A stretch of 51,616 nucleotides of DNA from Verrucomicrobiota bacterium (GTDB taxonomy: Bacteria; Verrucomicrobiota; Verrucomicrobiia; Chthoniobacterales; UBA10450), in contig JBEEHC010000125.1 in assembly GCA_041167205.1 (NCBI GenBank), forward strand, positions 1 through 51,616. The letters run 5' to 3'. A program made the position numbers and the translations under genes. Below are positions 6,104-40,325 of this stretch, piece after piece. Position 1 is the first letter of the stretch; each line of letters starts with the position of its first letter. The notes under the pieces were generated by a model. The model was given only the letters and a program-made list of their open reading frames with translations, ran no database searches and was not told where the DNA came from.

Positions 6104-7120
6104 CTAGCTTGATATCGTTAGGACCACGCGGAATCGCACCTTGCCGCTGTGCATCTGCTCGTAGGCTTCCGCTACGCGGCTGAGCGGGTATTTCTCGATC
6201 ATCGGGTGCACGCCGCTCAACGCGCTGAATTCCAATGTGTCCTGCGAATCTTTCGCGGTGCCGGAATACCACCCCGACACCGATCGCCTTCCCATGATCA
6301 ACGGCATCACGTTCACGGACAACGGTTCGTTAGGCGCGGCCGGCACCAGCAGGTTGCCGTCCGGCGCCAATCCATCCACCAGCGCGGAAATCGCCTCTGC
6401 GTTCGGCGCTGTTCCCAGGATCACGCGCGCGCCGCCGAGCTTTTGCAATTCCGCCGCCGCATCGCCACTGCCGGAATCGATGTAGTGATGTGCGCCCAGT
6501 TTTTTCGCCAACGGTTCTTTATCCTTTCCGCGGCCCACCGCCACGGTCTTGAATCCCATCTGCCGCGCGTACTGCACTCCGAGATGTCCCAGTCCGCCGA
6601 TGCCGTGCACCGCCACCAGGTCGCCGGCGCGCGCGCCCGAATGGCGGAGCGCGTTGAAGACGGTGACGCCCGCGCACATGAACGGCCCGGCTTCTTCCGC
6701 CGGCAATTCATCCGGAATCACGGCCAGCACCGCCGCCGGTGCGATCAAGTACTCGGCATATCCGCCGTCGAAATCGATCCCGGTGACTTTGCGATTGACG
6801 CACATGGCGAAGTCCCCGCGCCGGCACGGTTCGCAAACGAAACAATGTCCTCCATGCCAGCCCACCCCGACGCGCTGGCCTTTGCTCCATGCAGTGACGT
6901 TGGGGCCGACCGCATCGACGCGGCCCGCGATCTCGTGACCCGGCACGCGAGGAAATTGAAGCCCCGGCCAGATACCCTCCTTGACGAGCATATCGCTATG
7001 GCAAATGCCGCACGCCTCCACCTTCACGCGAACCTGCCCGGCGCCTGGCTCCGGGATCTCGCGTTCCACCAATTCAAAATCCCCACCCGCTTTGCTGATC
7101 TGCGCCGCCTTCATCCTCAT
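6104..7120 (-). CDS. zinc-dependent alcohol dehydrogenase (AdhA-like, MDR superfamily)
   Basis: GICHSD catalytic Zn motif, structural Zn cysteines (CFVCEPCRRGDFAMC), and GIGGLGH Rossmann motif. An alternative start lies two codons downstream (7114). Confidence 0.9.
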   Translation of the reverse strand: MRMKAAQISKAGGDFELVEREIPEPGAGQVRVKVEACGICHSDMLVKEGIWPGLQFPRVPGHEIAGRVDAVGPNVTAWSKGQRVGVGWHGGHCFVCEPCRRGDFAMCVNRKVTGIDFDGGYAEYLIAPAAVLAVIPDELPAEEAGPFMCAGVTVFNALRHSGARAGDLVAVHGIGGLGHLGVQYARQMGFKTVAVGRGKDKEPLAKKLGAHHYIDSGSGDAAAELQKLGGARVILGTAPNAEAISALVDGLAPDGNLLVPAAPNEPLSVNVMPLIMGRRSVSGWYSGTAKDSQDTLEFSALSGVHPMIEKYPLSRVAEAYEQMHSGKVRFRVVLTISS

Positions 7121-7133
7121 AATGCGATTACTC

Positions 7134-7220
7134 TCGTGGACGGATAAGGCGTCCAGCTATTGGACATATGAGGGATTTATTCCCACTGCCTCGGAACGAG
7201 CACCGCCTCGTCCTTTCGAA
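7134..7220 (-). promoter_or_regulatory. conserved intergenic element copy S1 (upstream of ADH)
   Basis: Aligns without gaps to 8072..8158 (75/87 identical by hand count). Contains the cccactgcctc core and the hairpin ACGAG-caccgc-CTCGT. Confidence 0.7.
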
Positions 7221-7252
7221 CGAGATGATGCCACGGCTTCACTATTTCCCTG

Positions 7253-8008
7253 TCAACGCAGACCACCCGCGACGCGCAGCGTTTCGCCTGTAATCCACGC
7301 GCTGTCTGGAGAAGCGAGGAACACCACGGCCGGCGCGATATCATTTGGTTGAGCGATGCGGCCGAGCGGCGTGCGCGCCGTCGTTTGTTTTTCGAAGTCA
7401 CTTCCCGCGAAACCGCCGGCATCGAAGCCTTCGGTTACAACGGGGCCAGGATTGATGGCGTTCACGCGGATGCCCTTTGGTCCAAGCTCATTTGCCAACA
7501 CGCCGGTGATTGCATCCACTGCACCCTTCGTTGCCGAGTAAACTACCGACATCGGCGGGGTTGCTGAGCTCGCGAGAGAACTGATGTTAATGACACTGCC
7601 CCCTTCCGGCCCAAAATGTTTTGCGGCCTCCTGGGTAGTTAAGATTAGCCCGAGAACGTTCGTGTTGAACTGCCGGTGAAACTCATCCTCGGTCACTGCT
7701 TCCAGGGGTTCGAAGCGATAGACGCCCGCGTTGTTGACGAGAATATCGAGCGCGCCGAAAGCCTTCTTCGACTCCGCGAATAAGCGATCAACCTCCGCCT
7801 TCTTGGCCACATTGGCTTGGACCGCCACGGCCTTTCCACCCTTGTTGATAATCTCGGCTACGACCTTGTCAGCGTCTGTCTTGCTGGAGGCGTAGTTGAC
7901 GATCACCGCGGCGCCTTCAGCCGCGAGATGTTTGGCGATGGAAGCGCCAATTCCTTTCGATGCGCCCGTCACGACCGCGACTTTCCCGTTCAGTTTTCCG
8001 TCTTTCAT
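7253..8008 (-). CDS. SDR-family oxidoreductase (FabG-like)
   Basis: TGASKGIGASIA cofactor motif, NNAG, and the S...YSATK catalytic motif. Confidence 0.9.
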   Translation of the reverse strand: MKDGKLNGKVAVVTGASKGIGASIAKHLAAEGAAVIVNYASSKTDADKVVAEIINKGGKAVAVQANVAKKAEVDRLFAESKKAFGALDILVNNAGVYRFEPLEAVTEDEFHRQFNTNVLGLILTTQEAAKHFGPEGGSVINISSLASSATPPMSVVYSATKGAVDAITGVLANELGPKGIRVNAINPGPVVTEGFDAGGFAGSDFEKQTTARTPLGRIAQPNDIAPAVVFLASPDSAWITGETLRVAGGLR

Positions 8009-8071
8009 TGCGTGCCTCTCATTTTTTGGTTTTTTGGAAATTCATCACCTCCACTGGTGTAAAATCTAACT

Positions 8072-8158
8072 TCGTGGACAGACGAGGCATCCAGCCAGTG
8101 GACATAGGAGTGATTTGTTCCCACTGCCTCAGAACGAGTACCGCCTCGTTCTTTCGAA
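8072..8158 (-). promoter_or_regulatory. conserved intergenic element copy S2 (upstream of SDR 7253..8008)
   Basis: Same 87-nt element as S1. Perfect 7-bp hairpin GAACGAG-taccgc-CTCGTTC. Confidence 0.7.
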
Positions 8159-8293
8159 GGAGGTGTAGCGACCCCGCCCCCAGACGGGTTGCCGATCTAG
8201 AGGACCGGCAGGCGATGCGCCCGCCCTACAATTCTTGGATTTGTGTAGGACGACCGCTCCGGTTGCCAGCGGCGCTCGTCCCCACGTCTTTTG

Positions 8294-15860: not shown

Positions 15861-18800
15861 CTAAGCCGCTGGCTCCGCTCCCAACGGGGGCTCCGGTTGG
15901 ATCGGTGCTGGCCTGGACGTCTTGGTGTGGCGCTCTTTGAACCACATGATCACGACGTAAAACACGGGCGTGAGAAAGAGGCCGAAGCCGGTGACGCCGA
16001 GCATGCCGAAGAAAACGGCAGTACCGAGCGCCTGTCGCATTTCCGCGCCGGCGCCTTTGCTGAGGACAAGCGGAAGGACGCCGAAAATGAAGGCAAAGGA
16101 AGTCATCAGGATCGGACGCAGCCGCAAACGAGCCGCTTCGACGGCGGCGGCGAAGCGATCCTTTTTATCACGGTCCTCGATTTGCTTGGCGAACTCGACA
16201 ATCAGGATGGCGTTCTTGCAGGCGAGCCCGACCAGCACGACGAAGCCGATCTGCGTGAAGATGTTGTTCTCCATCGAGCGCAGCCAGACGCCGCCGATCG
16301 CGCTGAACAGGCACATCGGGACAATGAGAATGATAGCGAGCGGCAAAGACCAGCTTTCGTAAAGCGCCGCCAGCAGGAGGAAGACGAACAGGACGCAGAG
16401 CGGGAAGATGTAGATCGCGCTATTGCCGGCGAGCTTTTGCTGCAGCGCGATCTCCGTCCAGTCTGTCGTGAAGCTCGTGGGCAGAGTTTCTTTGGCGATA
16501 CGGTCGATGGCTGCGAGGGCGTCGCCCGTGCTGGCGCCGGGCGCTGGTTGGCCGCTGAGGTCGGCGGCCGGAAACATATTGTAGCGGGTGACCTTGTCGG
16601 CGCCGCTCACTTCCCGGACGGTCGAGACGGAACCGAGCGGAACAATTCCACCCATGGCATTGCGCGTTTTGAGCAAGCGGATGTCGTCGGGCTTGAGGCG
16701 AAACTCAGAGTCGGCCTGGGCCGTGACCCGGTAGGTTCTTCCAAAAAGCGTGAGGTCGTTCACGTAGCTCGAACCGAGGTAGGTCTGGAGCGTGCCGAAG
16801 ATATTGCTGAGCGGCACGCTCATGCTCTTCGCCTTCACCCGATCCACATCGAGCCAGAGCTGCGGCACGTTGGCGCGGAAGGTCGTCAGGTTATTGGTCA
16901 GGCCAGGGGTCTGGTTTGCTTTTCTCGTCATGGCGAAAGCTTGCGCCTGCAGTTCTTCCAGACCAGCGTTGCCGCGGTCCTGAATGAAGAGCTTGTAGCC
17001 GCCGGCGTTGCCAATCCCGGCCACAGGTGGTGGTGGAAAGACGACGACCAGGGCCTCAGGAATTTCCGCGCGAACCCGGGCGTTCATCTTCGCCACGATC
17101 GACGGCAATCCCTCCTCGGGCGTGGTTCGCTCCGAGAATTCCTTGAAAGGCAGAAAGACGGCGGCAGTGTTGGTTTGATTCCCGCCGAAAAGATTGAAGC
17201 CGGCGAATTCCACGGTGTTGAGTACGCCAGGCGTTTCGCGTCCAATCTTTGAAATCTTGTCCACGACAGCTTGCGTGCGATCGAGCGAAGAGGCGTCGGG
17301 CAATTGTGCGAAAACGATCGCATAGCCGCGATCCTGCGTGGGCAGGAACCCGGCCGGCACAACTTTGAAACCGAGACCGGTCAGGAAGAGTAACCCGGCG
17401 TAGATGAGCAGCACGACGACCGCGAGCCGGGTAAGCCGCCCAACCGTATTACCGTAGGCATTCGAGCTCCAAGCGAAGACTTTGTTGAACCCTTTGAAGA
17501 ACCAGCCGAGCAAGCCATCGATCAGACGCTGGAACGAATCCTTCTTCGCGCCGCGTGGCTTGAGCAGAAGCGACGCGAGTGCAGGCGAAAGGGTAAGCGA
17601 ATTCAACGCGGAGATCGCGGTCGAAACCGCAATGGTGAGCGCAAATTGCCGAAAGAATATGCCCGTGATGCCGCTGATAAACGCGGTCGGGATAAAGACC
17701 GAGCAAAGCACGAGCGCAATCGCGACCAAAGCCCCGCCCACTTCAGTCATGGCTTTGCGCGCCGCGTCACGCGGGCTAAGACCGTCTTCAATGTGATGCT
17801 CGATGGCCTCGACGACGACGATGGCGTCATCGACCACGATGCCGATCGCGAGAACAAGGCCGAAGAGCGAGATGTTGTTGATCGAAAACCCGAAGGCCTG
17901 CATCGCGGCGAAGGTGCCGATCAACGAAACCGGAATGGCGATGAGCGGAATGAGCGCCGCGCGCCACGTTTGTAGAAAGATGAGGACAACCAGGACGACT
18001 AGCGCGATGGCTTCGAAGAGCGTCTTCTGCACTTCGTGGATCGACTCGCGGACAGACACGGTTGGGTCGTAGACAATTGTGTAGTCGAGCCCGGCGGGAA
18101 ACCGTTTCTTCAGCTCGGCCATCTTCGCGCGCACGGCGTCGGAGGTGGCGAGGGCGTTCGAACCCGGGAGCTGAAAGATGGCCATCGCCGTCGCCGGTTT
18201 TCCGCCGAGCTGGCTGTTGACCGTGTAGTCGCGAGCCGCGAGCTCAACTCGCGCGACATCGCGCACGCGCGTGACTTGCCCGTCGGCGCCAGTCTTGATG
18301 ATGATGTCGCCAAACTCCTTTTCGTCCGCGAGCCGGCCCTGCGTGCTGACCGTGTATTGAAAGGCCGTGGCGCCTTTCGGCACGGGCGGCGCGCCGATGA
18401 TTCCCGCCGCCACTTGCACATTCTGCTCCTGAATCGCCGTCACCACGTCCTGCGCGGTGAGCCCACGCGAAGAGACCTTGTTAGGATCGAGCCAGATCCG
18501 CATCGAATATTCGCGCGCGCCGAAGACATTGATGTCGCCAACACCATCGACACGCGCGAGCTCATCGCGAACCTGGAGCAGCGCATAATTGCTGGTAAAA
18601 AGCTGATCCAGCGACCCGTCCGGTGAAACGAGATGCACGACCATGGTAATGTCCGGCGACTGTTTCTTCGTGGTGACGCCGATGCGTTGAACGTCAGGCG
18701 GGAGGATGGGAATCGCGATGGCGACGCGGTTTTGCACCAGCACCTGCGCCGTATCGAGATTCGTGCCGAGCTTGAAAGTGATGCTCAACGTCATGTTGCC

Positions 18801-19061
18801 GTCGCTCGTGCTTTGCGAAGACATGTAGAGCATGTTCTCGACGCCGTTGACCTGTTGTTCGATCGGCGTCGCCACGGTTTCCGATACGACCTTCGCGTTT
18901 GCACCCGGATAGTTGGTCGTAACCTGGATGGTGGGCGGTGCGATCTGGGGATATTGCGCGATCGGAAGCGTCGAAAGCGCAATCACGCCGACGAGCGTGA
19001 TGACAATACTGATCACGCCGGCGAAGATCGGGCGGTCGATGAAAAAGTGAGGAAAGTTCAT
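15861..19061 (-). CDS. RND multidrug efflux permease (HAE1, AcrB/MexB-like)
   Basis: 1066 aa. MNFPHFFIDRPIFAGVISIV N-terminus and a 12-TM RND architecture. Confidence 0.95.
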   Translation of the reverse strand: MNFPHFFIDRPIFAGVISIVITLVGVIALSTLPIAQYPQIAPPTIQVTTNYPGANAKVVSETVATPIEQQVNGVENMLYMSSQSTSDGNMTLSITFKLGTNLDTAQVLVQNRVAIAIPILPPDVQRIGVTTKKQSPDITMVVHLVSPDGSLDQLFTSNYALLQVRDELARVDGVGDINVFGAREYSMRIWLDPNKVSSRGLTAQDVVTAIQEQNVQVAAGIIGAPPVPKGATAFQYTVSTQGRLADEKEFGDIIIKTGADGQVTRVRDVARVELAARDYTVNSQLGGKPATAMAIFQLPGSNALATSDAVRAKMAELKKRFPAGLDYTIVYDPTVSVRESIHEVQKTLFEAIALVVLVVLIFLQTWRAALIPLIAIPVSLIGTFAAMQAFGFSINNISLFGLVLAIGIVVDDAIVVVEAIEHHIEDGLSPRDAARKAMTEVGGALVAIALVLCSVFIPTAFISGITGIFFRQFALTIAVSTAISALNSLTLSPALASLLLKPRGAKKDSFQRLIDGLLGWFFKGFNKVFAWSSNAYGNTVGRLTRLAVVVLLIYAGLLFLTGLGFKVVPAGFLPTQDRGYAIVFAQLPDASSLDRTQAVVDKISKIGRETPGVLNTVEFAGFNLFGGNQTNTAAVFLPFKEFSERTTPEEGLPSIVAKMNARVRAEIPEALVVVFPPPPVAGIGNAGGYKLFIQDRGNAGLEELQAQAFAMTRKANQTPGLTNNLTTFRANVPQLWLDVDRVKAKSMSVPLSNIFGTLQTYLGSSYVNDLTLFGRTYRVTAQADSEFRLKPDDIRLLKTRNAMGGIVPLGSVSTVREVSGADKVTRYNMFPAADLSGQPAPGASTGDALAAIDRIAKETLPTSFTTDWTEIALQQKLAGNSAIYIFPLCVLFVFLLLAALYESWSLPLAIILIVPMCLFSAIGGVWLRSMENNIFTQIGFVVLVGLACKNAILIVEFAKQIEDRDKKDRFAAAVEAARLRLRPILMTSFAFIFGVLPLVLSKGAGAEMRQALGTAVFFGMLGVTGFGLFLTPVFYVVIMWFKERHTKTSRPAPIQPEPPLGAEPAA

Positions 19062-19089
19062 CGCGCTTTCGCTCGCAGATGGGTCACTA

Positions 19090-20298
19090 TCATTTCGGCG
19101 TTGCGGCTGGCGTGGCTTCGGGCGGCTTTTCAGACGGCGCCGCGGCGGGCGGCTGCACCGGCGGCTCTTCTTGAATTGGCTTAACCGGCATCCCTGGCTG
19201 GATTAATTGCAGGCGCGTGGAGACCACCTTCTCGCCATCCTTCAGTCCACTCTTCACGATGCGTTTGCCGTCGAACATCGTTCCGGTCTCAATATTGCGG
19301 TGCTCGAGTGTGTTGTCCGCTTTGACCACAAAGACGTACTTCACTCCCTGCTGTGAGCTAATCACTTTATCTGGAATAAGTGCGGCCCGATATGGCGTCG
19401 CGCCGGCTACCCGCACGCGCACGAAGAAGCCCGGGGTGATAAGATTAGGGTTCCAGTTTTTTAGCACCGCGCGCGCGCGGACCGTGCCCGTCCCGGGATC
19501 GAGGCGGTTGTCAACGAAGTCAATGTAACCTTCATGTGGAAAATCGGTTTCGTTGCCGAGCTCGACGAAGGCCGGGATTTTTGCGGTGCGCGCGCTCACG
19601 CGTTTGCCCTCTTCGCTGAGCTTTATGTACTTGAGAATTGCATTTTCGTCAGCGTCGACCTTCGCGTAAATCGGATCGACTGAGACAACGGTGGTAAGCA
19701 CGCTTTCCGGGCCGGCGCCCGGCTGGACGAGGTTCCCGAGCGTGATGCGCGCGTCGCTCACGCGGCCGTCGATGGGCGATTTGATTTGGGTGAACTCCAG
19801 ATTCAGCGCGGCAGAGTTTTTCGCTGCTTCAGCCGCTGCCGCTGCGGCGGAGGACCCTTGGTAGGTAGCGGCCTTCTGGTCAAATTCGCTGGCGGAGATT
19901 GTATTCTTGGCCCGCAATTCCTTCGCGCGATCCAGTTCAATCTGCGAAAGCTTCAACTGCGCCTGCATGCGTTCCAGCTCGGCTGCGGCTCGATCAAAGT
20001 CCGCCTGGTAGGGACGCGGGTCGATCACATAAAGCAGGTCGCCCTTCTTTAGGATCGCCCCGGCCTCGAAATGGATCTCAGTAATATAGCCGGACACGCG
20101 TGGACGGATCTCGACCGATTCCACGGCCTCCAGGCGCCCCGTGAATTCGTCCCATTCCTTTACCTCTTTCTCGATCACAGTAACGACATTGACCGGGAGC
20201 GGGCCCTGCTGCGGCGCGGAGTTCTTTTTGCATCCAGCCGTCAAGAGGATCGACAACATTCCAACTCCAATAAACATGTTTTTCACGATAGCTTTCAT
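19090..20298 (-). CDS. RND efflux periplasmic adaptor (MFP) lipoprotein
   Basis: Lipobox LLTAGC, coiled-coil hairpin, and barrel-sandwich motifs (GDLLYVIDPRPYQ). Confidence 0.9.
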   Translation of the reverse strand: MKAIVKNMFIGVGMLSILLTAGCKKNSAPQQGPLPVNVVTVIEKEVKEWDEFTGRLEAVESVEIRPRVSGYITEIHFEAGAILKKGDLLYVIDPRPYQADFDRAAAELERMQAQLKLSQIELDRAKELRAKNTISASEFDQKAATYQGSSAAAAAAEAAKNSAALNLEFTQIKSPIDGRVSDARITLGNLVQPGAGPESVLTTVVSVDPIYAKVDADENAILKYIKLSEEGKRVSARTAKIPAFVELGNETDFPHEGYIDFVDNRLDPGTGTVRARAVLKNWNPNLITPGFFVRVRVAGATPYRAALIPDKVISSQQGVKYVFVVKADNTLEHRNIETGTMFDGKRIVKSGLKDGEKVVSTRLQLIQPGMPVKPIQEEPPVQPPAAAPSEKPPEATPAATPK

Positions 20299-21071
20299 TG
20301 TCGCGTTGTTGGTTTGGTTGTTGCAGCTTCTTCGATCTGGGCTGCAACCTCCTTCGGCCTGGAGATGTAGACCGCGTGGCTGGCGCCTGGGACTTCGACC
20401 TTGTGGCTCTTGGCTCGTTCGGCATACCAGCGTTCCAGGTCAGGGTTGATGGCTCTGTCTTTTGCCGCTACCAGCATCCAACTCCGTTTGCTTCTCCAGG
20501 CAGCTGTGGTGATGACTGCTTTGAAATTGTCAGCCGCGTTGAGCACCTGCGCTCGCGCCATAAAAGCGGCCTGCTCTTCAGGCAGGTCGGCCGCGAAGTA
20601 TTCACGAAACTGCGCGGGATCGAGGTAAGTGAAACCATCCGCCGTCTTCTTTATCGCAGTCGACTTGCTAAGGTCGCTCGGGAAGCGTTTTCCGTCGTCA
20701 GCCTCATTCTCTCCAGCATCTGGCATGTGGGCGGCGATGTAGACCAAACCTGCGACAGATGGATCCGTCCCTGCTTCGGTAATTACTGCGCCTCCGTAGC
20801 TGTGGGCGACAAGAATGCACGGTCCATCTTGTTGAGCGAGGACCCGCTTTGTGGCAGCCACATCTTCCTTAAAGGATGTCTCCGGCTCCTGAACGATGCT
20901 GACCTTGTAGCCATCCTTGATCAGAATGTCGTAAACACCCTTCCAGCCCGAACCATCTGCCCAGGCACCGTGAACCAGCACGATATTCCGAACCCGGGGC
21001 GCATCGTTTTGCGCCCGGAGCAGGGCACAACAAGTGATCAGCCATAATGCGATGAAGAAGGACTGAAACAT
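20295..21071 (-). CDS. secreted alpha/beta hydrolase
   Basis: Signal peptide MFQSFFIALWLITCCALLRAQ, then VLVHGAWADGSGW and AHSYGG nucleophile motif. It overlaps the MFP start by 4 nt. Confidence 0.8.
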   Translation of the reverse strand: MFQSFFIALWLITCCALLRAQNDAPRVRNIVLVHGAWADGSGWKGVYDILIKDGYKVSIVQEPETSFKEDVAATKRVLAQQDGPCILVAHSYGGAVITEAGTDPSVAGLVYIAAHMPDAGENEADDGKRFPSDLSKSTAIKKTADGFTYLDPAQFREYFAADLPEEQAAFMARAQVLNAADNFKAVITTAAWRSKRSWMLVAAKDRAINPDLERWYAERAKSHKVEVPGASHAVYISRPKEVAAQIEEAATTKPTTRQ

Positions 21072-21172
21072 TCCTCGTCCTGCTCGAACGATCTTGATTT
21101 TGTTAATCGTTGCCCTTTTAGGAACATGAGGAACGACTCCGCCATCAGGTTTGACTGCCATCGGCTGCGTAA

Positions 21173-21562
21173 CTACGGCTCTTGCTCAATCAGTTGCTTG
21201 AAATTCAAAAGGTATTCCTCCGCGCTTTGACCAGAGATTGAAGGATCGAAAACTGAACGTAACTTTAGTGTGATTTCTGTGGCATCATCGGACAGCGGTT
21301 CGAACAAAACCACCCCCAGCCCCACGCTATCCCCAATTGTTCGCCAGGCTATCTTCCGCTCAGGAATCTGCCGTATGACCTCGATCACTCCGCTCTGTTC
21401 TTTGCCACCCCGACCATTGCTGAACGAGAAATGTGTGTCGTCGATTCGCTCGATGTTATCGAGTGATTTGATGAACTTCGGAAGTTCTTCGAAGCACAAC
21501 CACCGTTCATAGACTTCGGCGACCGGCGCATTCACGACGATCGATTTCTCGGCGGCGTTCAT
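21173..21562 (-). CDS. SRPBCC-family (polyketide cyclase/dehydrase-like) protein
   Basis: SIVVNAPVAEVYERWLCFEELPKF... is the typical SRPBCC start. ATG at 21562. Confidence 0.7.
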   Translation of the reverse strand: MNAAEKSIVVNAPVAEVYERWLCFEELPKFIKSLDNIERIDDTHFSFSNGRGGKEQSGVIEVIRQIPERKIAWRTIGDSVGLGVVLFEPLSDDATEITLKLRSVFDPSISGQSAEEYLLNFKQLIEQEP

Positions 21563-21780
21563 GGGTTTGCCTATTGATGACTCATTCAGGCCGAGAACCG
21601 CGCATAACTCTCCCTGGCAAAGGTCCGACTCCATCCGTCCGTGTAGTTGAAGACCGTCATGCTCAAGGAAAGCAACGGATCATGACGTCGCGCGGTGCGG
21701 CGAAAGATTCTTCGCCAAAATTCTGCGAAGCTATTCCTGCGTTGTTGTTGGATTTTCATACTCTTGGGTGCCGGGTTGGA

Positions 21781-22188
21781 TCAATGAACCAGAACGGGCC
21801 GGCTGGATTGGCGGGAGGTCGCAAAAGCGCCGCGCGCTGCGAAAACCCTGGCCAAAGATCCTCTAAACGAAGTGGAAAGCGTTTCAGCCATTCGTCGTGA
21901 CCGCCAATACCAACCGGGCGGGGTGTCTGACAACAATTCTGCCCGTTGCACTTCCGGAGATAAGCCGAGTGCTTCGCACACGTTCAGGAAGGAGTAGGGC
22001 CAGATGAAATCGTTCGATGCGACCCAGCTGTAGGCGTCTCTGTACATCTCGCGTCCGACGCGATCCAGCGCTCCGCGAAATCTCCGCAAGTCCTGTTTCG
22101 CTTGAACCATTACGCCCTTGGCTAAAGCAACGTGAGGTCCGGAACTCGCTAACGCTTCCGCCGTTTCATCGCTCTGGATCGTTTTCAT
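21781..22188 (-). CDS. hypothetical protein
   Basis: 135-aa ORF directly downstream of element S3. No motif recognised. Confidence 0.45.
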   Translation of the reverse strand: MKTIQSDETAEALASSGPHVALAKGVMVQAKQDLRRFRGALDRVGREMYRDAYSWVASNDFIWPYSFLNVCEALGLSPEVQRAELLSDTPPGWYWRSRRMAETLSTSFRGSLARVFAARGAFATSRQSSRPVLVH

Positions 22189-22219
22189 CACGCGAAAGGT
22201 TAATCCTCCGCGTCAATCT

Positions 22220-22286
22220 CCAGCCATTGGGCATAGGAGGGAATTATTTACACTGCCTGCGAAGGAGATCCGTCTCCTCCCTTTGG
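22220..22286 (-). promoter_or_regulatory. conserved intergenic element copy S3 (overlaps the last codons of the histidine kinase)
   Basis: ccagccattgggcataggagggaattatttacactgcctgcgaaGGAGAtccgTCTCCtccctttgg. The core is shared with S1/S2/S4 and the hairpin has compensatory changes. Confidence 0.65.
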
Positions 22287-25200
22287 AGGAGGCTCGTCCC
22301 TGGGCCAGGAGGGCGCTCCCTGCGCGTAGGGGGAAATCACGACAATCTTTGTCCCTTTGCCGCGCGCACTCGTCACGCTCAGGGCTCCGCCCATTTGGGC
22401 GACACGTTCTTGCATTCCGGTAAGACCGAAGCCGTCATGATGCCCGTTCATCTTGAAACCAACCCCGTTGTCTTGAAGCTCCAAACGGACTTCCGTGGCA
22501 TTGAAGCTGAGCCGGGCTTCGAAGCGGGTCGCATGGGCATATTTGAGCGTGTTCGTTAACGCTTCCTGCCCGATATGCAGCAGGTTTTCCTGCACCAGCG
22601 GCGAAAGTTCGCGTGTCTTGCCGCGACGTTGGAACTCGGCGTGAAGGCCTGTGCCCGCGGTGGCATCCTTGATGAGGCTTTGGAGAGCTTGCCAAAAGGC
22701 GGCATCTTCCAACGCTTGTGGCCGCAACGCGCGCACCGACCGGCGCGCTTCATTCAAACCTGCCCGCGCCAGATCGCGTGCGCTTTGGAGATGATTGATC
22801 GCGTCCTTCTTGTAGCCTTTGGTGGTTGCGTCGTCGGCCGCCTGCAATTGAACGATCACGCCCGTGAGCCCCTGCGCCAAAGTGTCGTGGATGTCTCGCG
22901 CCATTCGATTGCGTTCTTCCAAGACCGCTGCGCGCCGACTTTGGTCGGCAAACTCATTGAGTTGAATGGCGAACATCGCCTGGTGGGCAAGCGCTTGCGC
23001 CAATTCGATCTCCTCGGGCCGGTAAGACGGTCGAGCTGTGTGGCGAATGCCGATGAATCCCTTCACCTGCCCACCCACTAAAGTTGGAATCACCAGAAAC
23101 TTTCTGGTTCCCCTCGAGCGGAAATAGTCGCGAAGCGCGATCGACACACGCGGATCGTTTTCAATGTCTTCGCACGCAAGCGGAACCCCCGTGAAAAACA
23201 TCTCCGGCAGCCCGGGATTATCTCTCCACGAGAGCGGATCTTTCACGAACGGATGTTCCGGCTCGACGGCGGCAAGATTTGCGCCATGCACGCCCCCACG
23301 CCAAACGAGTGCATCTGTCGGTTCGTCTAGTAACCACAAAACGACACCCGGCGCGTTCAAGAGGCGGCCAATTGTGCTCAGCATTTGCCCAATGAATTGC
23401 TCAGGCGGAGGCGCGGTCGCGAGAATGTCGAGGCTTTGCACCAAGGCCTCGACTTGTCCTCGTGCCACCTGCTCGGAAGCCTGCAACGCGCCTTCCGCTC
23501 GTTTCCGCTCAAGGGCAATACTGGCCAGATGGGTGATCTGTTCAATAATTTCAAGCTGTTCCGAAGTGGGAGTGCGCGGCTCGCGATAATAAATCGCGAA
23601 CGTCCCCAGCACCCTGGCCTCTGAGGAGAGAATTGGGGTCGACCAGCAGGCTCGCAACCCATGCGGTAAGGCGAGATCGCGATAGTCGGCCCAAAGCGGA
23701 TCGGTCGCGATGTCAGAAACGATTACCGGCTGCGCCCGGTAAGCAGCCGTCCCGCATGAACCCGCCGAAGGGCCAATGACCGCGCCGTCGATCGCGTCGA
23801 TGTAGGCTTGGGGAAGGCTGGGTGCGGCACCGTGGCGCAGCTGAGTGCCATTCGGCTCCAGCAACAAGATGGAAGAGAGAGCCCCGCTGGACAGCTCCTC
23901 GACCAGCCGGCATAGAGCATCCAGAATAATGGGAAGCGAATCGCCCCGAGCCACCATCTCAAGCAGCCGCTTTTCTCCAGCCAGTAACGCCTCCGCGTGT
24001 TTGCGGGCGGTAATATCCACCGTGGTCCCGATATAGTTATCTATGTCGCCGGATGGCGTTATGACCGGACGGCCCACACCCTGGACATTCCTAATCGATC
24101 CATCCGCCAGCGCGATTCGGAATTCCATGTCAAAACCGCTCCTTTCGCGCACGGCCTCCTCGAGACCTCGCTCAATAGATGATCGATCTTCCGGATGAAC
24201 CGTTTCCAAAAATAATTCGAAAGATGGCTCGGCCTTTTCCGGATCGAAGCCGAAGATCCGGAAATGTTCGTCCGACCAGACGACCTTTCCGGTGGAGAGG
24301 TTCCAACCCCAGGTGCCGGTGTGACTGATTCTCTGGCCATCAGCGAGAAAACCCTCGCTTCGCCGCAGAGCCTCCTCGGCCCGATCCCGCTCAATCGCCA
24401 CTCGCGTGAGGTGCGTCGCTAGCTCGATCAACTCGAGGTCGTGCGAGTTCGGGCTTCGGGGTTCGCGATAATATAGGCAGAAGGTTCCCAAAACTCTTCC
24501 TTCCGACGAAAGCACTGGATTCGACCAGGAAGCTCGCAGCCCATGTCTTAAGGCCGAAGCACGATGCTCCGGCACGTCCCAAAGTGGATCGGTCGCAAGG
24601 TCGGAGACGATGACCGCCGATCCCCGGTATGCCGCCGTCCCACACGAGCCGGCGCAAGGACCGATGGGCAGACTGGCCATTTGCTGTGTCCATTCTTTTG
24701 GAACACTCGGTCCCGCCACGGAATCCAGATGAAGGCCATCGGCGCGAAGCAACAAAACAGAAGCAAGCGTGCCGGTTCGCTGCTCTTCGATCACTCGGCA
24801 CAAGACATCGAGGATGCTGGCCAGCGGCGCGCCTGTCGCGATCATCTCGAGCAGGCGTTTTTCACCGGTGAGCAGTGCCTCTGCGCGTTTGCGTTCGGTA
24901 ACGTTTTTAACCGCGCCAACGTACTCAGCGACCATTCCTGATTTGTCTTTCACGGCATGACACAGGATCTCGAGATGCTTGATCGATCCGTTGGGCATCA
25001 CGATTCGATGTCCGTATTCGAAATCTTTCATCTCCCGGGCTGCCCGCTCGACGGTTTGATCACACGAAGCGAGATCGTCCGGATGAATCCCTTCGCGCGC
25101 CCGCTCGAGAGTGGGCTTGGTCGATGGATCCCATTCATAGATTCGAAACACTTCCTCCGACCAAAAAATCTCGCCGGTGACAACATTCCAACTGAAGCTG

Positions 25201-25556
25201 CCAGTAAGACTGAGGCGTTCGGACTCTGCCATATAGGCCCGCGTTTGCCGTAGTGCTGCCTCTGCCCGCTTGCGCTCAGAGTTTTCCTGGAGGAGCTCCG
25301 CGTTATGCCGGGTGATGAGGCGGATTTGATACAGCGCAAACAACAGCATCACAAACCCGGCCAGTGCGGCCACGGGAAACCACACGGTTTGATAATACGG
25401 CGTCTGGGAAACGGCTCCGACCAGCCCGGGAATGCCGTCCTGAGCGGACCAGGGCGGGCGAGTGATTTGATTGATTGATTTCTGCGGATTGAGCGCGTTG
25501 GCAAAATCACTCAACGCGAACGCCATTACCAGGACACTGGCACACAGAACTTTCAT
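22248..25556 (-). CDS. sensor histidine kinase: 2 TM, PAS-GAF-PAS-GAF-GAF, HisKA_3, HATPase_c (NarX/DegS type)
   Basis: The H-box ARDIHDTLAQGLTG is typical of HisKA_3. The C-terminus carries an ATPase G-box (GFGLTGMQERV). Two internally duplicated PAS-GAF modules are present (L[TA]GEKRLLEM...GSCGTAAYR...). Confidence 0.9.
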   Translation of the reverse strand: MKVLCASVLVMAFALSDFANALNPQKSINQITRPPWSAQDGIPGLVGAVSQTPYYQTVWFPVAALAGFVMLLFALYQIRLITRHNAELLQENSERKRAEAALRQTRAYMAESERLSLTGSFSWNVVTGEIFWSEEVFRIYEWDPSTKPTLERAREGIHPDDLASCDQTVERAAREMKDFEYGHRIVMPNGSIKHLEILCHAVKDKSGMVAEYVGAVKNVTERKRAEALLTGEKRLLEMIATGAPLASILDVLCRVIEEQRTGTLASVLLLRADGLHLDSVAGPSVPKEWTQQMASLPIGPCAGSCGTAAYRGSAVIVSDLATDPLWDVPEHRASALRHGLRASWSNPVLSSEGRVLGTFCLYYREPRSPNSHDLELIELATHLTRVAIERDRAEEALRRSEGFLADGQRISHTGTWGWNLSTGKVVWSDEHFRIFGFDPEKAEPSFELFLETVHPEDRSSIERGLEEAVRERSGFDMEFRIALADGSIRNVQGVGRPVITPSGDIDNYIGTTVDITARKHAEALLAGEKRLLEMVARGDSLPIILDALCRLVEELSSGALSSILLLEPNGTQLRHGAAPSLPQAYIDAIDGAVIGPSAGSCGTAAYRAQPVIVSDIATDPLWADYRDLALPHGLRACWSTPILSSEARVLGTFAIYYREPRTPTSEQLEIIEQITHLASIALERKRAEGALQASEQVARGQVEALVQSLDILATAPPPEQFIGQMLSTIGRLLNAPGVVLWLLDEPTDALVWRGGVHGANLAAVEPEHPFVKDPLSWRDNPGLPEMFFTGVPLACEDIENDPRVSIALRDYFRSRGTRKFLVIPTLVGGQVKGFIGIRHTARPSYRPEEIELAQALAHQAMFAIQLNEFADQSRRAAVLEERNRMARDIHDTLAQGLTGVIVQLQAADDATTKGYKKDAINHLQSARDLARAGLNEARRSVRALRPQALEDAAFWQALQSLIKDATAGTGLHAEFQRRGKTRELSPLVQENLLHIGQEALTNTLKYAHATRFEARLSFNATEVRLELQDNGVGFKMNGHHDGFGLTGMQERVAQMGGALSVTSARGKGTKIVVISPYAQGAPSWPRDEPPPKGGDGSPSQAV

Positions 25557-25596
25557 TCAGCTGCGGGCGCCGAAATCGGCTTTACTGAGCAAGCTC

Positions 25597-25639
25597 ACTT
25601 TTTAACACTGCCGAGAACGAGTTTCGCAGATTAATCTGC
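25597..25639 (-). promoter_or_regulatory. partial element copy S5 upstream of the kinase, containing the palindrome GCAGATTAATCTGC
   Basis: aacactgccgagaacgag matches the cccactgcctcagaacgag core. The hairpin position is occupied by a longer stem containing a 14-bp perfect palindrome (25626..25639). Confidence 0.5.
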
Positions 25640-25750
25640 TCTTGTCAGCAGCGATCGGCCGCACCGGACGGAGCTCGGAAACGACAGCCGTTCCGGAGAT
25701 AAACGAATCATAAGAATTATCCGACCGCCGGCGTTAAATACTCTTGGTTT

Positions 25751-25978
25751 TCAGCAAAAGCGGACCGCGCTAGCACGTTTTCCGGGCCGCCAGCCACCAC
25801 TTGCAGTCCAAGTTGCGCCATATGCTCTTCGGCCAATGTCGCCGAGGTCGGGATAAGCCTGTTGATAATTCTGTTGCAACCGGTTTTTGAGACGCGAAAT
25901 CGCGGCGGTCAATGCCTCGAGGAAAATAGGAATCGGCTGCGGCACCCTGTCCGTCACGATGGAATTACTGCTCCTCAT
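25751..25978 (-). CDS. small hypothetical ORF downstream of element S4 (doubtful; possibly frameshifted)
   Basis: 75-aa track ORF. After PDLGDI a +1 frame reads more protein-like (AEEHMAQLGLQVVAGGPENVLARSAFAENQEYLTPAVG*). No homology recognised. Confidence 0.25.
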   Translation of the reverse strand: MRSSNSIVTDRVPQPIPIFLEALTAAISRLKNRLQQNYQQAYPDLGDIGRRAYGATWTASGGWRPGKRASAVRFC

Positions 25979-26024
25979 TTGGTTTAGTAATCACCGGGGA
26001 AAGTTAGTGACGCGATTGCCGTGT

Positions 26025-26091
26025 CCGCCATTGAGCATCGGACGTAATTATTTCCACTGCCTCAGGACGAGCGCTGGCTCGTCTCTTTAAA
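26025..26091 (-). promoter_or_regulatory. conserved intergenic element copy S4 (between the response regulator stop and the small ORF/kinase)
   Basis: ccgccattgagcatcggacgtaattatttccactgcctcagGACGAGCgctgGCTCGTCtctttaaa. Confidence 0.65.
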
Positions 26092-26118
26092 GGAGCCCGG
26101 AAAACTCGCCTAACGACA

Positions 26119-26871
26119 CTAAAGCTGAATCAGGCCGCGCTGGTTGGCGGCAGCAATGGCTTCGGTTCGGCTCATCACATTCAATTTCGAAAAAATGCTT
26201 CTGACGTGGGTCTTTACGGTGGTTTCGCTGATGAAGAGATCTGTGCCTATCTCCTTGTTGCTTCTGCCGCGAGCAAGCAGCTTCAGCACATCGATTTCAC
26301 GCCCCGTCAACGCTTCCCCGCTCATGCGTGACGCGAGCTTGGCCCCGAGAGCGGGGGGAATGCAGGTTTCCCCGGCGTGCACTTTTCGAATCGCGTCTAA
26401 TAGTTCGTCCAACGGCGCGTCCTTCAGCAGGTAGGCCCTCGCTCCTGCCCGGACCGCTTGATAGATTTCCTCATCGGTATCGTAGGTGGTGTGCACGATC
26501 ACCCGTGCGGAAACATCCAAGTCGCGAACTTCTCGGATCACGCCGACTCCGTTCAATTGCGGCATACGCAAATCGAGCAGGGAAACATCGGGGAGATGCT
26601 TCTTCCATAACTCAACCGCTTCGCGGCCATCGCTGGCCTTGGCCACAACGGTCATGTCATCCTGTCGGCCAATCGTCGCCGCCAAACCCTCGAGGATCAG
26701 CGCATGGTCGTCGGCAATGAGGAGGCGGATCTTTTTGGTGCGAGATGTCTTGTCGATTCCGCGACGAGTCTGAATTCGAAGTCGTGACGAAGAAGCAGAA
26801 CTTTTTTTGGCTTTCGGCTTCCTCTTCATCTCATCGGCGATTGCTCGCTTTACCTGCCACTGTGATATCAT
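26119..26871 (-). CDS. NarL/LuxR-family response regulator (REC + HTH_LuxR)
   Basis: IRLLIADDHALILEGL...DLRMP receiver domain and a C-terminal LTGREIDVLKLLARGRSNKEIGTDLFISETTVKTHV. There is a K/R/S-rich N-terminal extension. ATG 26829 is an alternative start that avoids the receiver remnant. Confidence 0.9.
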   Translation of the reverse strand: MISQWQVKRAIADEMKRKPKAKKSSASSSRLRIQTRRGIDKTSRTKKIRLLIADDHALILEGLAATIGRQDDMTVVAKASDGREAVELWKKHLPDVSLLDLRMPQLNGVGVIREVRDLDVSARVIVHTTYDTDEEIYQAVRAGARAYLLKDAPLDELLDAIRKVHAGETCIPPALGAKLASRMSGEALTGREIDVLKLLARGRSNKEIGTDLFISETTVKTHVRSIFSKLNVMSRTEAIAAANQRGLIQL

Positions 26872-26902
26872 CCTGGCGGCCGGTTGTCGCCGCTAAACCC
26901 TC
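26843..26902 (-). pseudogene. remnant of a receiver-domain coding segment (partial duplication of the adjacent response regulator)
   Basis: The minus-strand frame encodes EGLAATTGRQDDITVAGKAS versus EGLAATIGRQDDMTVVAKAS in the intact regulator (16/20 identical). The nucleotide similarity to 26640..26700 is visible directly. Confidence 0.6.
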
Positions 26903-27039
26903 CGGTCTTGCTTTTGTCATATTTGATTCATTTCGAGCAGACGCCGTCGTGTCGCGAAGCAAATGCCAATGAGGCGACGCAGCCGGAATTTGCGCGTTGT
27001 GCAGCGCACCCGGATGAGTAATTTGCGATCCTCGTAAAC

Positions 27040-27112
27040 GCACCGCTAGCTCAATTGGCAGAGCAAGTGACTCTTAATCACTGGGTTGTTGGTTCGATTC
27101 CAACGCGGTGCA
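27040..27112 (+). tRNA. tRNA-Lys (anticodon CTT)
   Basis: Hand-folded cloverleaf. Acceptor GCACCGC/GCGGTGC, D arm GCTC-AATTGGCA-GAGC, anticodon arm AGTGA-CTCTTAA-TCACT, T arm GTTGG-TTCGATT-CCAAC, discriminator A. CCA is not encoded. Confidence 0.9.
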
Positions 27113-27119
27113 GATTTCG

Positions 27120-28748
27120 TCAGTCGACGTACTGTTGCGCGATCGGCATTCGGCGCCCGACGCCGAAGGCGCGGCTGGTGACCTTGATGCCAGGCGCGGC
27201 TTGCTCCCGCTTGTATTCGTTGAGGTCCACTCGCCGCTGCACCCACCGCACTGTCTTTTCGTCGAAGCCATGCGCAATGATGTCGCGCGCGCTCATGTTT
27301 TCCTCGACGTAGAGGCGTAGGATTTCGTCGAGCACATCGTACGGCGGCAAGCTGTCCTGATCGGTCTGGCCAGGCCTTAGTTCGGCGCTCGGCGGCTTTT
27401 CGATGGTCGACACGGGAATGATTTCCTCACGCCGATTTATCCAGCGCGCCAGCGCGTAAACCATGGTCTTCGGCACGTCGCTGATCACCGCCAGACCGCC
27501 GGCCATGTCGCCGTAAAGTGTGCAGTAGCCAACGGCCAATTCGCTCTTGTTTCCCGTGGTGAGAAGCAGGTGGCCAAACTTATTCGAAAGCGCCATCAGG
27601 GTCATTCCACGCAAGCGCGCCTGCATGTTTTCTTCCGCCGTGTCCTCGGGCAGACCGGCGAAAATTTCCGTGAACTGGGACTTGAACGCGGCAAAGGCGT
27701 TGCCGATGGGAATTTGCAGGCATTTAATGCCGAGATTTCGGGCCAGCGCGAGCGCGTCGTCGATGCTGCCGCGTGATGAGTATGGGCTCGGCATCGATGC
27801 GCCGAGGACGTTCTCCGGACCAAGCGCGTTCACGGCCACCGCCGCAACGACCGCGGAGTCGATGCCTCCGCTCAATCCCAGCACAGCGGATTTGAAATTA
27901 CACTTTGTCAGATAATCGCGCACGCCTAACGAGAGAGCGTCGAACAGGTCGGCCATGTCATCGGCCTTCGCCAGTTGCACCGGCTGCGACGCCTCGGTCT
28001 CGACGATTTCCTCGGAGGTGCGGAAGGCCGGTAATTGCGCGATCAATTCGCCCTGGGAATTCACCGCGATCGAATTGCCATCAAAAACCAATTGATCGTT
28101 GCCACCGACCGCGTTGCAGTAGCAGATCGACCGGCGATAGGTCCGGGCCAGCGTCACGACCATCTCGCGTCGAATGGCCGGCTTGCCCAAACCGAAGGGC
28201 GACGCGCTCAGGTTCAGAATAATCTCCGCCCCCTGCTCCACCAACGAGCGCACGGGCTCAATCTCGTAGAGCGGGCGCGGCAAGTAACGCTCCGTCCAGA
28301 TGTCTTCGCAGATGGTGACGCCGATTTTCTTGGCACCGAACATCAACGGAGCCACGCTCCTCGCCGGTTCGAAGTAGCGATCTTCATCGAAGACGTCGTA
28401 AGTCGGCAGGAGCGATTTGTGCGTTTTGGCGATCGGTGCGCCCGGTTGCAGCAAAGCCGCCGCATTGTGAAACGGCTTTCCGCGCCCCTGGTTTCGATCC
28501 ACGAAACCAACCAGCAAACCGGCGCTCCCGATTCGCGCCTGGAGCTTTTCCAGGATCTCGAGATTTTGCGGAACGAACCGCGATTTGAAGAGAAGGTCCT
28601 GTGGCGGATAACCGGGAATGGCGAGCTCTGGCGTGACGACCAATTCCGCTCCCGCGGCGACAAGCCGCTCATAGGCCACGGCAATCTTCTCAAAATTGCC
28701 GCTCAAATCCCCGACGGTGGGGTTGATTTGAGCGAAACCGATCTTCAT
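27120..28748 (-). CDS. nadE: glutamine-dependent NAD+ synthetase
   Basis: An N-terminal nitrilase/CN-hydrolase domain (MKIGFAQINPTVGD..., CEDIW) plus the synthetase P-loop GLSGGIDSAV. Confidence 0.95.
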   Translation of the reverse strand: MKIGFAQINPTVGDLSGNFEKIAVAYERLVAAGAELVVTPELAIPGYPPQDLLFKSRFVPQNLEILEKLQARIGSAGLLVGFVDRNQGRGKPFHNAAALLQPGAPIAKTHKSLLPTYDVFDEDRYFEPARSVAPLMFGAKKIGVTICEDIWTERYLPRPLYEIEPVRSLVEQGAEIILNLSASPFGLGKPAIRREMVVTLARTYRRSICYCNAVGGNDQLVFDGNSIAVNSQGELIAQLPAFRTSEEIVETEASQPVQLAKADDMADLFDALSLGVRDYLTKCNFKSAVLGLSGGIDSAVVAAVAVNALGPENVLGASMPSPYSSRGSIDDALALARNLGIKCLQIPIGNAFAAFKSQFTEIFAGLPEDTAEENMQARLRGMTLMALSNKFGHLLLTTGNKSELAVGYCTLYGDMAGGLAVISDVPKTMVYALARWINRREEIIPVSTIEKPPSAELRPGQTDQDSLPPYDVLDEILRLYVEENMSARDIIAHGFDEKTVRWVQRRVDLNEYKREQAAPGIKVTSRAFGVGRRMPIAQQYVD

Positions 28749-30022: not shown

Positions 30023-30038
30023 TGGTACACTCCCTGTG

Positions 30039-39767: not shown

Positions 39768-39784
39768 AAGAAAATGCGAACACC

Positions 39785-40321: not shown

Positions 40322-40325
40322 ACGC

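Follow-up and report, generated by a model that had tools for sequence, protein, structure and literature searches.

What is the short conserved block that recurs around a two-component system in the genome of a Chthoniobacterales bacterium, and which protein reads it? The block lies in a 51,616-nucleotide contig of Verrucomicrobiota origin (JBEEHC010000125.1; the window, by which we mean this whole stretch of DNA), in part beside genes for a sensor kinase and a NarL/FixJ-type response regulator and in part upstream of oxidoreductase genes. An initial annotation, made from the letters alone, had counted four full copies (S1 to S4) and one partial copy (S5) and read them as DNA sites for the regulator. 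Our analysis indicates that the element is very likely the upstream, protein-bound part of an activator-dependent sigma-70-type promoter. It also favors, at a probability of roughly 0.55, a fuller account in which S1 to S4 would each be one ~95-bp promoter unit activated through the adjacent NarL-type regulator and kinase.

A repeat search of the window identified a family of four copies of 69 to 101 nt on the minus strand (7134-7234, 8072-8172, 22201-22301, and 26027-26095). With the fragment S5, the window total is four full copies and one fragment, all on the minus strand; identity among the copies is 70 to 87% over ~100 nt, and they are intergenic and lie within 19 kb. A 26-nt consensus with at most 3 mismatches has 3 matches in the window, all of them copies of this family (0.00 expected), and the pattern GGCAGTGNNAANAA has 6 (0.7 expected), among them S1 to S4 and the S5 fragment at 25599-25612. 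The pattern CTCGTTCN{1,4}GGCAGTG matches at S1, S2, and S5 against an expectation of 0.00, so S5 is not a chance match. The five copies of the initial annotation are therefore real, found by repeat search and by patterns far above chance expectation, and two of them do precede oxidoreductase genes, S1 a zinc-dependent alcohol dehydrogenase (Zn-ADH) gene and S2 a short-chain dehydrogenase/reductase (SDR) gene. No heptamer palindromes or core motifs of the kind described below occur in the window outside S1 to S4, for example 5' of the regulator gene. The copies are as follows.

7157..7224, minus strand: S1 conserved upstream module, 5' of the Zn-ADH gene (6104-7120); ADH/SDR subtype, with A/T block GGGAATAAATCC
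8095..8162, minus strand: S2 conserved upstream module, 5' of the SDR gene (7253-8008)
22224..22291, minus strand: S3 conserved upstream module, ~-101 to -34; 5' of orf136 (21781-22191)
26028..26095, minus strand: S4 conserved upstream module, beginning 24 nt past the regulator stop (26119); 5' of orf75 (25751-25978)
25599..25621, minus strand: S5 fragment, CTCGTTC-TC-GGCAGTG plus an A-run only; ends ~43 nt 5' of the kinase ATG (25556)

Read in the sense of the downstream gene, every full copy has the same layout, with CTCnTTC-GAAA-GGAnGAG-N6-CTCnTTC-NN-AGGCAGTG as its first half and N-(G)AAATAATTCC or GGAATAAATCC-N-TCCT-N4-5-YCCAATRG as its second. In the element numbering used here, the conserved block occupies positions 6-73 and position 95 corresponds to -12 in promoter numbering. 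The parts of the block, and their places in S3, are listed below.

Element numbering: heptamers at 6-12, 17-23, and 30-36; AGGCAGTG at 39-46; A/T block at 48-57; CAATRG at 68-73
Promoter numbering: heptamers at ~-101 to -71; AGGCAGTG at ~-68 to -61; A/T block AAATAATTCC at ~-59 to -50; TCCnTCCT...YCCAATRG ending at -34
S3 heptamers, minus strand: CTCCTCC 22291-22285; GGAGGAG 22280-22274; CTCCTTC 22267-22261
S3 core, minus strand: AGGCAGTG 22258-22251; A/T block AAATAATTCC 22249-22240; TCCT 22238-22235; CAATGG 22229-22224

The three 7-nt half-sites alternate in orientation, heptamers 1 and 2 forming a 7-4-7 inverted repeat and heptamers 2 and 3 a 7-6-7 one. Information content is high in the heptamers, AGGCAGTG, the A/T block, and CAATRG, and low at the middle base of the heptamers, in the 6-nt gap, and at a few linker positions. 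The varying middle base is how a protein half-site of the form CTC-n-TTC would behave. Among related loci retrieved from other sequences (given L numbers), a second type of copy was found at L065 to L070 and, on the plus strand, in the regulator promoter of L072. These type II copies keep the A/T-TCC-CAATAGC core and the -10 hexamer described below; heptamers 1 and 2 are absent, and a perfect 7-4-7 palindrome at positions 30-47 (CTCCCTC-TTAG-GAGGGAG in L065, CTCCTCC-GTAG-GGAGGAG in L072) stands in place of heptamer 3 and AGGCAGTG. Type I copies hold heptamer 3 and a half-degenerate AGGCAGTG at these positions, supplemented by the upstream 7-4-7 pair. Possible dimer-site centers fall at ~-69, -80.5, and -92.5, in steps of 11 to 12 bp, which would place the palindromes on one face of the helix. 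The ADH/SDR-subtype copies (7158-7136 and 8096-8074 in the window, and their orthologous copies) have an extra conserved spacer block, CTGGGCGCCTCATCAGTCCAC, between the core and the -10. A short stem (UGGRC...GYCCA) with some compensatory change is possible there, and the block may serve the two oxidoreductase promoters as a second site of their own.

The position of the downstream hexamer carries the promoter reading. We aligned 45 distinct copies from the window, related genomes, and soil metagenomes on G73 and examined the following 45 nt. A hexamer [T/G]AnnnT starts at positions 93-96 in 43 of the 45 copies (at position 95 in 27), with a background of ~2% per position elsewhere; the strict form TAnnnT starts there in 27 of the 45 (at position 95 in 18), with a background below 1% per position. 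In these 43 copies the hexamer lies 20 to 22 nt past the conserved block, a register held across more than nine gene families. The ~21-nt spacer from G73 to the hexamer is unrelated between the gene groups (orf136, orf118/orf75, alpha/beta-hydrolase, cupin/enoyl-CoA hydratase, SnoaL, MauE-like, a 163-aa protein, DUF4126-like, and ADH/SDR), and the distance alone is conserved. A fixed distance across unrelated spacers is the signature of a sigma-70 -10 element. The fixed register thus bears out the earlier proposal that the block is promoter or operator DNA.

Placing the hexamer at -12 to -7 puts the conserved block at ~-101 to -34. At the -35 position (71-77) only T-R-G is conserved, with no TTGACA, and the A/T block at -59 to -50 lies where an UP element would sit. 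A -10 without a -35, together with ~70 bp of conserved upstream sequence, suggests that an activator is needed. The tRNA-Lys gene in the window has TTGTGC-16-TAATTT upstream, indicating that the organism uses ordinary sigma-70 promoters. Two kinds of rearrangement support a self-contained promoter: in L061 an opposite-strand gene is inserted between the kinase and the element, and the element stays with orf136, and in L067 and L068 the upstream flanks are unrelated beyond ~45 nt 5' of the A/T block. Other promoter geometries were also considered. A generic scan for a sigma-70 -35/-10 pair inside the block found none at the copies (AATAAT is a fair -10 in subtype B alone, with no -35), an idea that the downstream hexamer replaced. 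Sigma-54 (GG-N10-GC), sigma-28, sigma-32, extracytoplasmic function (ECF), and PvdS-type geometries, inspected by hand on both strands, each fail on spacing or key bases.

The predicted -10 hexamers of the four full copies lie close to the start codons of their genes.

22197..22202, minus strand: S3 predicted -10, TAACCT; orf136 GTG at 22191, 5 nt past the hexamer; predicted start ~22192-22189
26001..26006, minus strand: S4 predicted -10, TAACTT; predicted start ~25995, with a ~17-nt leader to the orf75 ATG (25978)
7130..7135, minus strand: S1 predicted -10, GAGAGT; ADH ATG at 7120, ~3-nt leader
8068..8073, minus strand: S2 predicted -10, GAAGTT; alternative TAGATT at 8068-8063; SDR ATG at 8008

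The predicted S3 start coincides with the orf136 GTG (22191) or ATG (22188). All orf136 orthologues have their ATG 5 to 8 nt past the hexamer (mostly 5 nt), the cupin and MauE-like genes share this geometry, and in the ADH genes the ATG is 9 to 10 nt past the hexamer, for a leader of ~3 nt. Several target mRNAs, including those of orf136 and ADH, are therefore predicted to have no leader or almost none.

The element is not confined to the window. An exact-pattern scan of 185,579 species genomes returned 13 loci, six of which are real copies as judged by full flanking similarity. All six are in Verrucomicrobiota metagenome-assembled genomes (MAGs) labeled Candidatus Udaeobacter, Chthoniobacterales, Spartobacteria, or Verrucomicrobiae (lineage Verrucomicrobiota > Spartobacteria > Chthoniobacterales). 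A metagenome scan added ~25 further real copies on soil contigs, and a profile search of the fetched loci revealed extra divergent copies missed by the pattern, often two or three per locus. All copies with enough downstream sequence face a co-directional open reading frame (ORF) whose start lies within ~140 nt of the block end. The recurring target families are ADH, SDR, a 274-aa alpha/beta-hydrolase, a 118- to 121-aa protein of unknown function, orf136, cupin, enoyl-CoA-hydratase-like, SnoaL-like, NDH-2-like, and DUF4126-like membrane proteins. Copies occupy orthologous positions in genomes whose proteins are 58 to 95% identical, and the element always precedes the operon of orf136, SRPBCC, membrane fusion protein (MFP), and resistance-nodulation-division (RND) pump genes, an order kept in distant loci. 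These sequence comparisons indicate that the element defines a multi-operon regulon conserved across Chthoniobacterales genomes. The redox or alcohol-aldehyde regulon of the initial annotation proved too narrow, as the targets also include the RND efflux operon, alpha/beta-hydrolases, SRPBCC, SnoaL, and cupin proteins, and small proteins of unknown function. In this genome, the element stands before at least four operons; the target genes of S1 to S3 in the window are the following.

15861..22191, minus strand: presumed S3-driven operon of orf136 (21781-22191), SRPBCC (21173-21634), alpha/beta-hydrolase (20295-21161), MFP (19090-20298), and RND pump (15861-19061)
6104..8008, minus strand: target genes of S2 (SDR, 7253-8008) and S1 (Zn-ADH, 6104-7120), assigned by Pfam

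The two-component genes next to S3 and S4 are the kinase and the regulator.

22248..25556, minus strand: sensor kinase, PAS-GAF-PAS-GAF-GAF-HisKA_3-HATPase (Pfam)
26119..26871, minus strand: NarL/FixJ-type response regulator, REC plus GerE (Pfam Response_reg and GerE); candidate activator

This HisKA_3/GerE pair is alone of its type in the window, as first annotated, despite a second, hybrid HisKA kinase at 29952-31928. Is the pair linked to the element beyond this one contig? At eight loci (L002, L008, L011, L017, L024, L030, L038, and L051) the element lies ~25 nt past the regulator stop; these loci were retrieved through the element itself. In L002 and L008 the order is regulator, element, orf118, PAS/GAF kinase, element, orf136, SRPBCC, and hydrolase. 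Retrieval through orf136 (58 to 71% identity) gave L059/L060, L061, and L063/L064, all with the order regulator-kinase-element-orf136-SRPBCC-MFP-RND. Retrieval through the regulator alone (84 to 90% identity) gave L071, L072, and L073, all three with copies and with differing kinase sensor domains. Besides these three, the element adjoins regulator orthologues in more than 10 loci. L072 has two copies, divergent and overlapping, in the interval from a MauE-like gene to the regulator gene, one of them directly 5' of the regulator.

The genome comparison that the initial annotation had suggested thus shows the pair and the element co-occurring, also in loci retrieved through the regulator or orf136 alone. 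Neither of the two computable outcomes that would speak against the proposal was seen, a general lack of association between element copies and the pair or a kinase tail conserved as protein without the element. From this synteny, the adjacent NarL-type regulator is probably the protein that binds the element. The proposed autoregulation and bracketing of the pair stand in part: S4 adjoins the regulator, while nothing in the window marks the regulator gene itself as a target. A functional S5 bracketing the kinase is doubtful, as S5 is absent from related loci and has neither the A/T-TCC core nor a -10.

Starting from the observed repeat, its anatomy, the -10 register, its conservation at orthologous positions, and its synteny with the regulator, we infer where transcription starts, that the effect is activation and not repression, and which protein binds. 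In the mechanism we propose, the PAS/GAF HisKA_3 kinase would phosphorylate the adjacent response regulator. Cooperating dimers of the phosphorylated regulator would then occupy the heptamer repeats and probably some of the core. The bound regulator would recruit RNA polymerase to a promoter that has a -10 and no -35, and transcription would start 6 to 7 nt past the hexamer, which for orf136, ADH, and several others is on the start codon or a few bases from it. S3 would drive orf136, SRPBCC, hydrolase, MFP, and RND efflux genes, S2 the SDR gene, and S1 the Zn-ADH gene. S4 would drive orf75 and, if co-transcribed, the kinase, giving positive feedback on the sensor and not on the regulator.

Several observations weigh against this account. 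The link to the regulator is guilt by association, inferred only from synteny, and the regulator gene of the window has no copy upstream. The two 7-4-7 positions are 24 bp apart center to center, a non-integer number of helical turns. The core (-68 to -34) is conserved more strongly and more continuously than a typical operator array and resembles no known NarL-family site; part of the apparent AGGCAGTG invariance is an ascertainment effect of the pattern search, and copies retrieved through proteins differ at these positions (AAGGACTG, ACTTACTA, and AGGGATTG). The ADH/SDR subgroup has G rather than T at hexamer base 1 as well as the extra spacer block, which makes its geometry less secure. 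Changes that keep the inverted repeats symmetric (CTCCTCC/GGAGGAG and CTCCCTC/GAGGGAG) are also expected from selection on a hairpin.

Some of these points would fit a promoter read by a different factor, either an unlinked transcription factor or an alternative (ECF-like or group-3) sigma factor acting on the invariant core, with the two-component genes as mere regulon members. We consider this possible and rather unlikely. The length and conservation of the core are unusual in an operator, the orf136 homologues behind type II copies have no adjacent two-component system and no regulator for 6 kb or more, and a target set of SDRs, hydrolases, SRPBCC, and small proteins of unknown function looks like a general-stress regulon. 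ECF promoters have a -35 of the TGnAAC type, which TG[G/C/T]AAAT resembles, and a -10 with CGT 16 to 17 bp away, and a sigma/anti-sigma pair is usually linked to them. However, the hexamer is a canonical TAnnnT -10 at a fixed distance and not an ECF-type CGT motif; the -35-like TGnAAAT is present with no CGT at the right distance. Among the neighborhood genes scanned, which covers sigma genes linked to the loci only, neither the window nor the syntenic loci hold a sigma or anti-sigma gene, bar one faint Sigma70_r2 match on one contig. Further, the repeated tight adjacency to the regulator, across lineages with differing kinases, would have to be coincidence. A related and improbable idea is that the quasi-invariant 35-bp core (AGGCAGTG-N-AAATAATTCC-N-TCCT-N5-CAATRG) lies outside the operator of the regulator and serves as a docking surface for a second, lineage-specific factor. 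Candidates could be orf118/orf75 or orf136, small proteins that always travel with the system, or an unrecognized sigma-like subunit. If so, a set of largely leaderless genes would need a three-part system of kinase, regulator, and co-factor that has no described counterpart.

It is very unlikely that the element acts as RNA, whether as a 5' leader, riboswitch, or attenuator with heptamer 2 switching between heptamers 1 and 3 as its partner, or as a 3' stabilizing hairpin of the upstream gene. The block can form two mutually exclusive 7-bp hairpins, hairpin 1 with a GAAA (GNRA-type) loop in most copies, and it shows symmetric changes (GGAGGAG/CTCCTTC in S3, GGATGAG/CTCATTC in L035), a sense-strand G-U to A-U exchange, and folding z-scores of -1.1 to -2.4; transcripts of the regulator, kinase, or SDR gene 5' of the block would include it on read-through. 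Against this, RNAalifold on 32 distinct copies returned only the hairpin of heptamers 2 and 3, with a covariation term of -0.07. This hairpin 2 is 94% paired with one covarying pair, and its central pair is broken in 4 of the 32 copies and again in later ones (C.A in L059, U.C in L062). Hairpin 1, of heptamers 1 and 2, is 87.5% paired, with a broken central pair in 17 of the 32. In single-sequence folds, the four window copies differ from each other and leave the core unpaired. Rfam found only tRNA and SRP RNA in the whole window at gathering score, and nothing relevant in 21700-26300 at E values up to 10. The predicted -10 lies 21 nt 3' of the block, which would put the element outside the transcript of its own target gene. 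Nor does the block look like an intrinsic terminator: a terminator scan of 21500-27200 found none at S3, S4, or S5, and no U-tract follows either hairpin, the sense strand continuing with YGAGGCAG and the antisense strand with only TTTCGAA, with no T-run. With weak covariation and broken central pairs, the hairpin noted in the initial annotation makes more sense as an inverted repeat bound by protein than as a folded structure.

A dispersed repeat of REP (repetitive extragenic palindromic) or MITE (miniature inverted-repeat transposable element) type without regulatory meaning is scarcely credible. Several ~100-nt copies, 70 to 87% identical, intergenic, and within 19 kb, would suit such a repeat. 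Nonetheless, the copies lie before the same gene families at orthologous positions in genomes with proteins 58 to 95% identical, which excludes a mobile or junk repeat. All readable copies are co-oriented with the downstream gene at a fixed distance to the -10, and there are no terminal inverted repeats and no target-site duplications. We also rejected a leader peptide starting from an ATG inside the core; the ATG is not conserved (TTTACC, AACGTC, or TATTTC stand there instead), and frames differ between orthologous copies.

How does the activator-dependent promoter compare with known systems? Several features of NarL/FixJ-type promoters are present here, namely an adjacent REC plus GerE regulator with a HisKA_3 kinase, repeated or inverted half-sites, no good -35, a fixed -10 register, and multi-operon co-occurrence. 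One likeness is to the DevS/DosT-DevR (DosR) dormancy regulon of Mycobacterium tuberculosis, where GAF-containing HisKA_3 kinases also act with a NarL-type regulator. As in the DevR regulon, scattered stress operons share an upstream motif and the two-component genes adjoin target promoters. Between two and four tandem boxes in helical phase, such as those at -42.5 and -63.5, are required at DevR promoters, where a good conserved box nucleates cooperative binding to degenerate neighbor boxes (PMC3177182). The possible dimer sites here resemble this layout. Unlike DevS, the window kinase also has PAS modules, the regulator is only a distant PDB match to DevR (3c3w), and the targets are an RND efflux pump, ADH/SDR, and hydrolases. 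The half-sites also differ, being 7-mers (7-4-7 and 7-6-7) followed by a 35-bp quasi-invariant core, and the element sequence is unrelated to the Dev box, TTSGGGACTWWAGTCCCSAA. An 18- to 20-bp palindrome with the essential G and C positions of the Dev box was not found in the element sequence; GGGAATAAATCC(C) resembles it superficially only, with a symmetry that varies between copies (GGGAATAAATCC versus GGAAATAATTCC).

DesK-DesR, with related Gram-positive promoters of the Pdes type, is similar in having a NarL-family regulator, with DesR among the closest solved structures, and in alternating half-sites that match the three heptamers. The half-site sequence is different, and Pdes-type control concerns a single operon and not a dispersed regulon, at promoters that lack both a long conserved core and leaderless targets. 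NarL heptamer sites and LuxR-type lux boxes offer a third parallel, as GerE-domain dimer sites of 7-nt half-sites or a 20-bp palindrome. Such sites activate promoters with poor -35 elements. The 7-2-7 arrangement of NarL (TACYYMT with 2-bp spacing) is not present in the window heptamers, which are CTCnTTC with 4- and 6-bp spacers, and the palindrome centers lie at ~-69 to -92, not at -42.5.

The nearest PDB sequences of the regulator are ChrA, VraR, DesR, and NarL. All of its NCBIfam matches fall below curated cutoffs, so it is no equivalog of any named regulator, and its close relatives number more than 5,600 in the protein collection. Its true start is probably downstream of 26871, since the receiver domain begins at residue 51 and alignments with orthologues start at residue 10, 32, or 41. 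A 68-nt segment inside the gene (26624-26691), encoding ...EGLAAT.GRQDD.TV..KAS..., is duplicated at 26835-26902 with 75% identity; the second copy lies at and just 5' of the annotated start (26871) and overlaps the first dozen annotated codons. The kinase, too, is internally duplicated in its PAS-GAF module (a 92-nt repeat, 76% identity, at 23687-23778 and 24575-24666).

As the initial annotation had seen, the 3' end of the kinase gene overlaps S3. The frame runs into the element, where 22291-22248, the first 44 nt of S3, encode ...PPPKGGDGSPSQAV*; the overlap comprises the last 14 codons and the TAA stop, which lies inside the A/T block within GTG-TAA-ATAA. The L002 and L008 kinases end with ...LPDKQAAVP* and stop ~10 to 15 nt 5' of the profile-aligned element start, and the L026 kinase ends with ...EFLVDG* ~90 nt before the element. 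Orthologous kinases therefore end before the S3-encoded tail, indicating that the 14-codon tail in the window is a lineage-specific read-through and not conserved protein. Between kinase stop and element, L026 (~10140-10170), L061 (~4185-4215), L062, and L063 share a conserved stretch, (AT)CAACTCTCAAC(T), that is absent from the window.

S5 lacks the TCC core, and the kinase ATG occupies the place at which the family has its -10; S5 was not found in any of the related loci searched. In the interval corresponding to S5, L002 has two extra genes (a DUF4118-HisKA kinase and a stand-alone receiver) between orf118 and the PAS/GAF kinase, both absent from the window. Because of these two genes and the truncation of orf75, S5 is probably a nonfunctional remnant of a rearrangement. 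The full-length relatives of orf75 always lie 3' of the regulator in related genomes, with the element before them.

25751..25978, minus strand: orf75, a diverged, C-terminally shortened relative of a 118- to 121-aa protein of unknown function (L002 6523-6879)

The other small protein, orf136 (21781-22191), belongs to a mostly helical family with ~944 representative clusters at E values of at most 1e-3, and no Pfam or NCBIfam family matches it. We considered orf136 as an autoregulatory helix-turn-helix protein on account of the stretch FLNVCEALGLSPEV; the AlphaFold model is helical with a mean pLDDT of 71, and the best Foldseek match in PDB has an E value of 2.4, which does not support the idea.

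Two irregularities were seen among the target loci. In L009 (3710-4722), the ADH orthologue 3' of the element does not stay in one frame (two ORFs, of 137 and 213 aa, and fragmented tblastn matches), which is either a pseudogene or an assembly error. Genes of the bAvd/23S-rRNA-intervening-sequence-protein family sit at differing spots in otherwise syntenic kinase-orf136-MFP-RND clusters (L061 3796-4191, L062 2800-3105, and L063 8273-8665), suggesting a small mobile or frequently inserted gene.

A literature search for the motif or the system in Udaeobacter returned nothing relevant, and Rfam and NCBIfam hold no description of it. The motif, the regulon, and the gene set thus appear to be undescribed; the kind of system is an ordinary two-component regulon with a composite promoter and introduces no new principle. 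Soil metagenomes commonly contain Chthoniobacterales of the 'Candidatus Udaeobacter' type, which are known almost entirely from MAGs, and the promoter architecture with its defined regulon offers a testable handle on their response to chemical stress, probably xenobiotic, aldehyde, or redox stress. It links two uncharacterized small-protein families (orf118/orf75 and orf136) to a stress response of RND efflux and oxidoreductases. The promoter, regulator, and kinase are usable as parts in heterologous reporter assays.

Two further repeats were seen in the window. A second intergenic motif, unrelated to the element and on the minus strand, occurs at 39783-39829, 40324-40370, and 40758-40779, with a 21-nt core, TCATCTTRTTCTCGTTAGRTG, inside a 46-nt repeat at the first two sites and the variant TCGTCTAATTCTCGTTAGATG at the third. 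It precedes the consecutive small ORFs 39405-39767 and 39902-40327 and may represent a further promoter or operator shared by several genes. At 41643-41672 and 51436-51465 there is an exact 30-nt repeat, AGGCGCTTGGCACAAGCGCCTCTACATTCA; it contains a perfect hairpin (GGCGCTTG-GCAC-CAAGCGCC), and one copy lies ~50 nt 5' of the SRP RNA gene (51513-51607).

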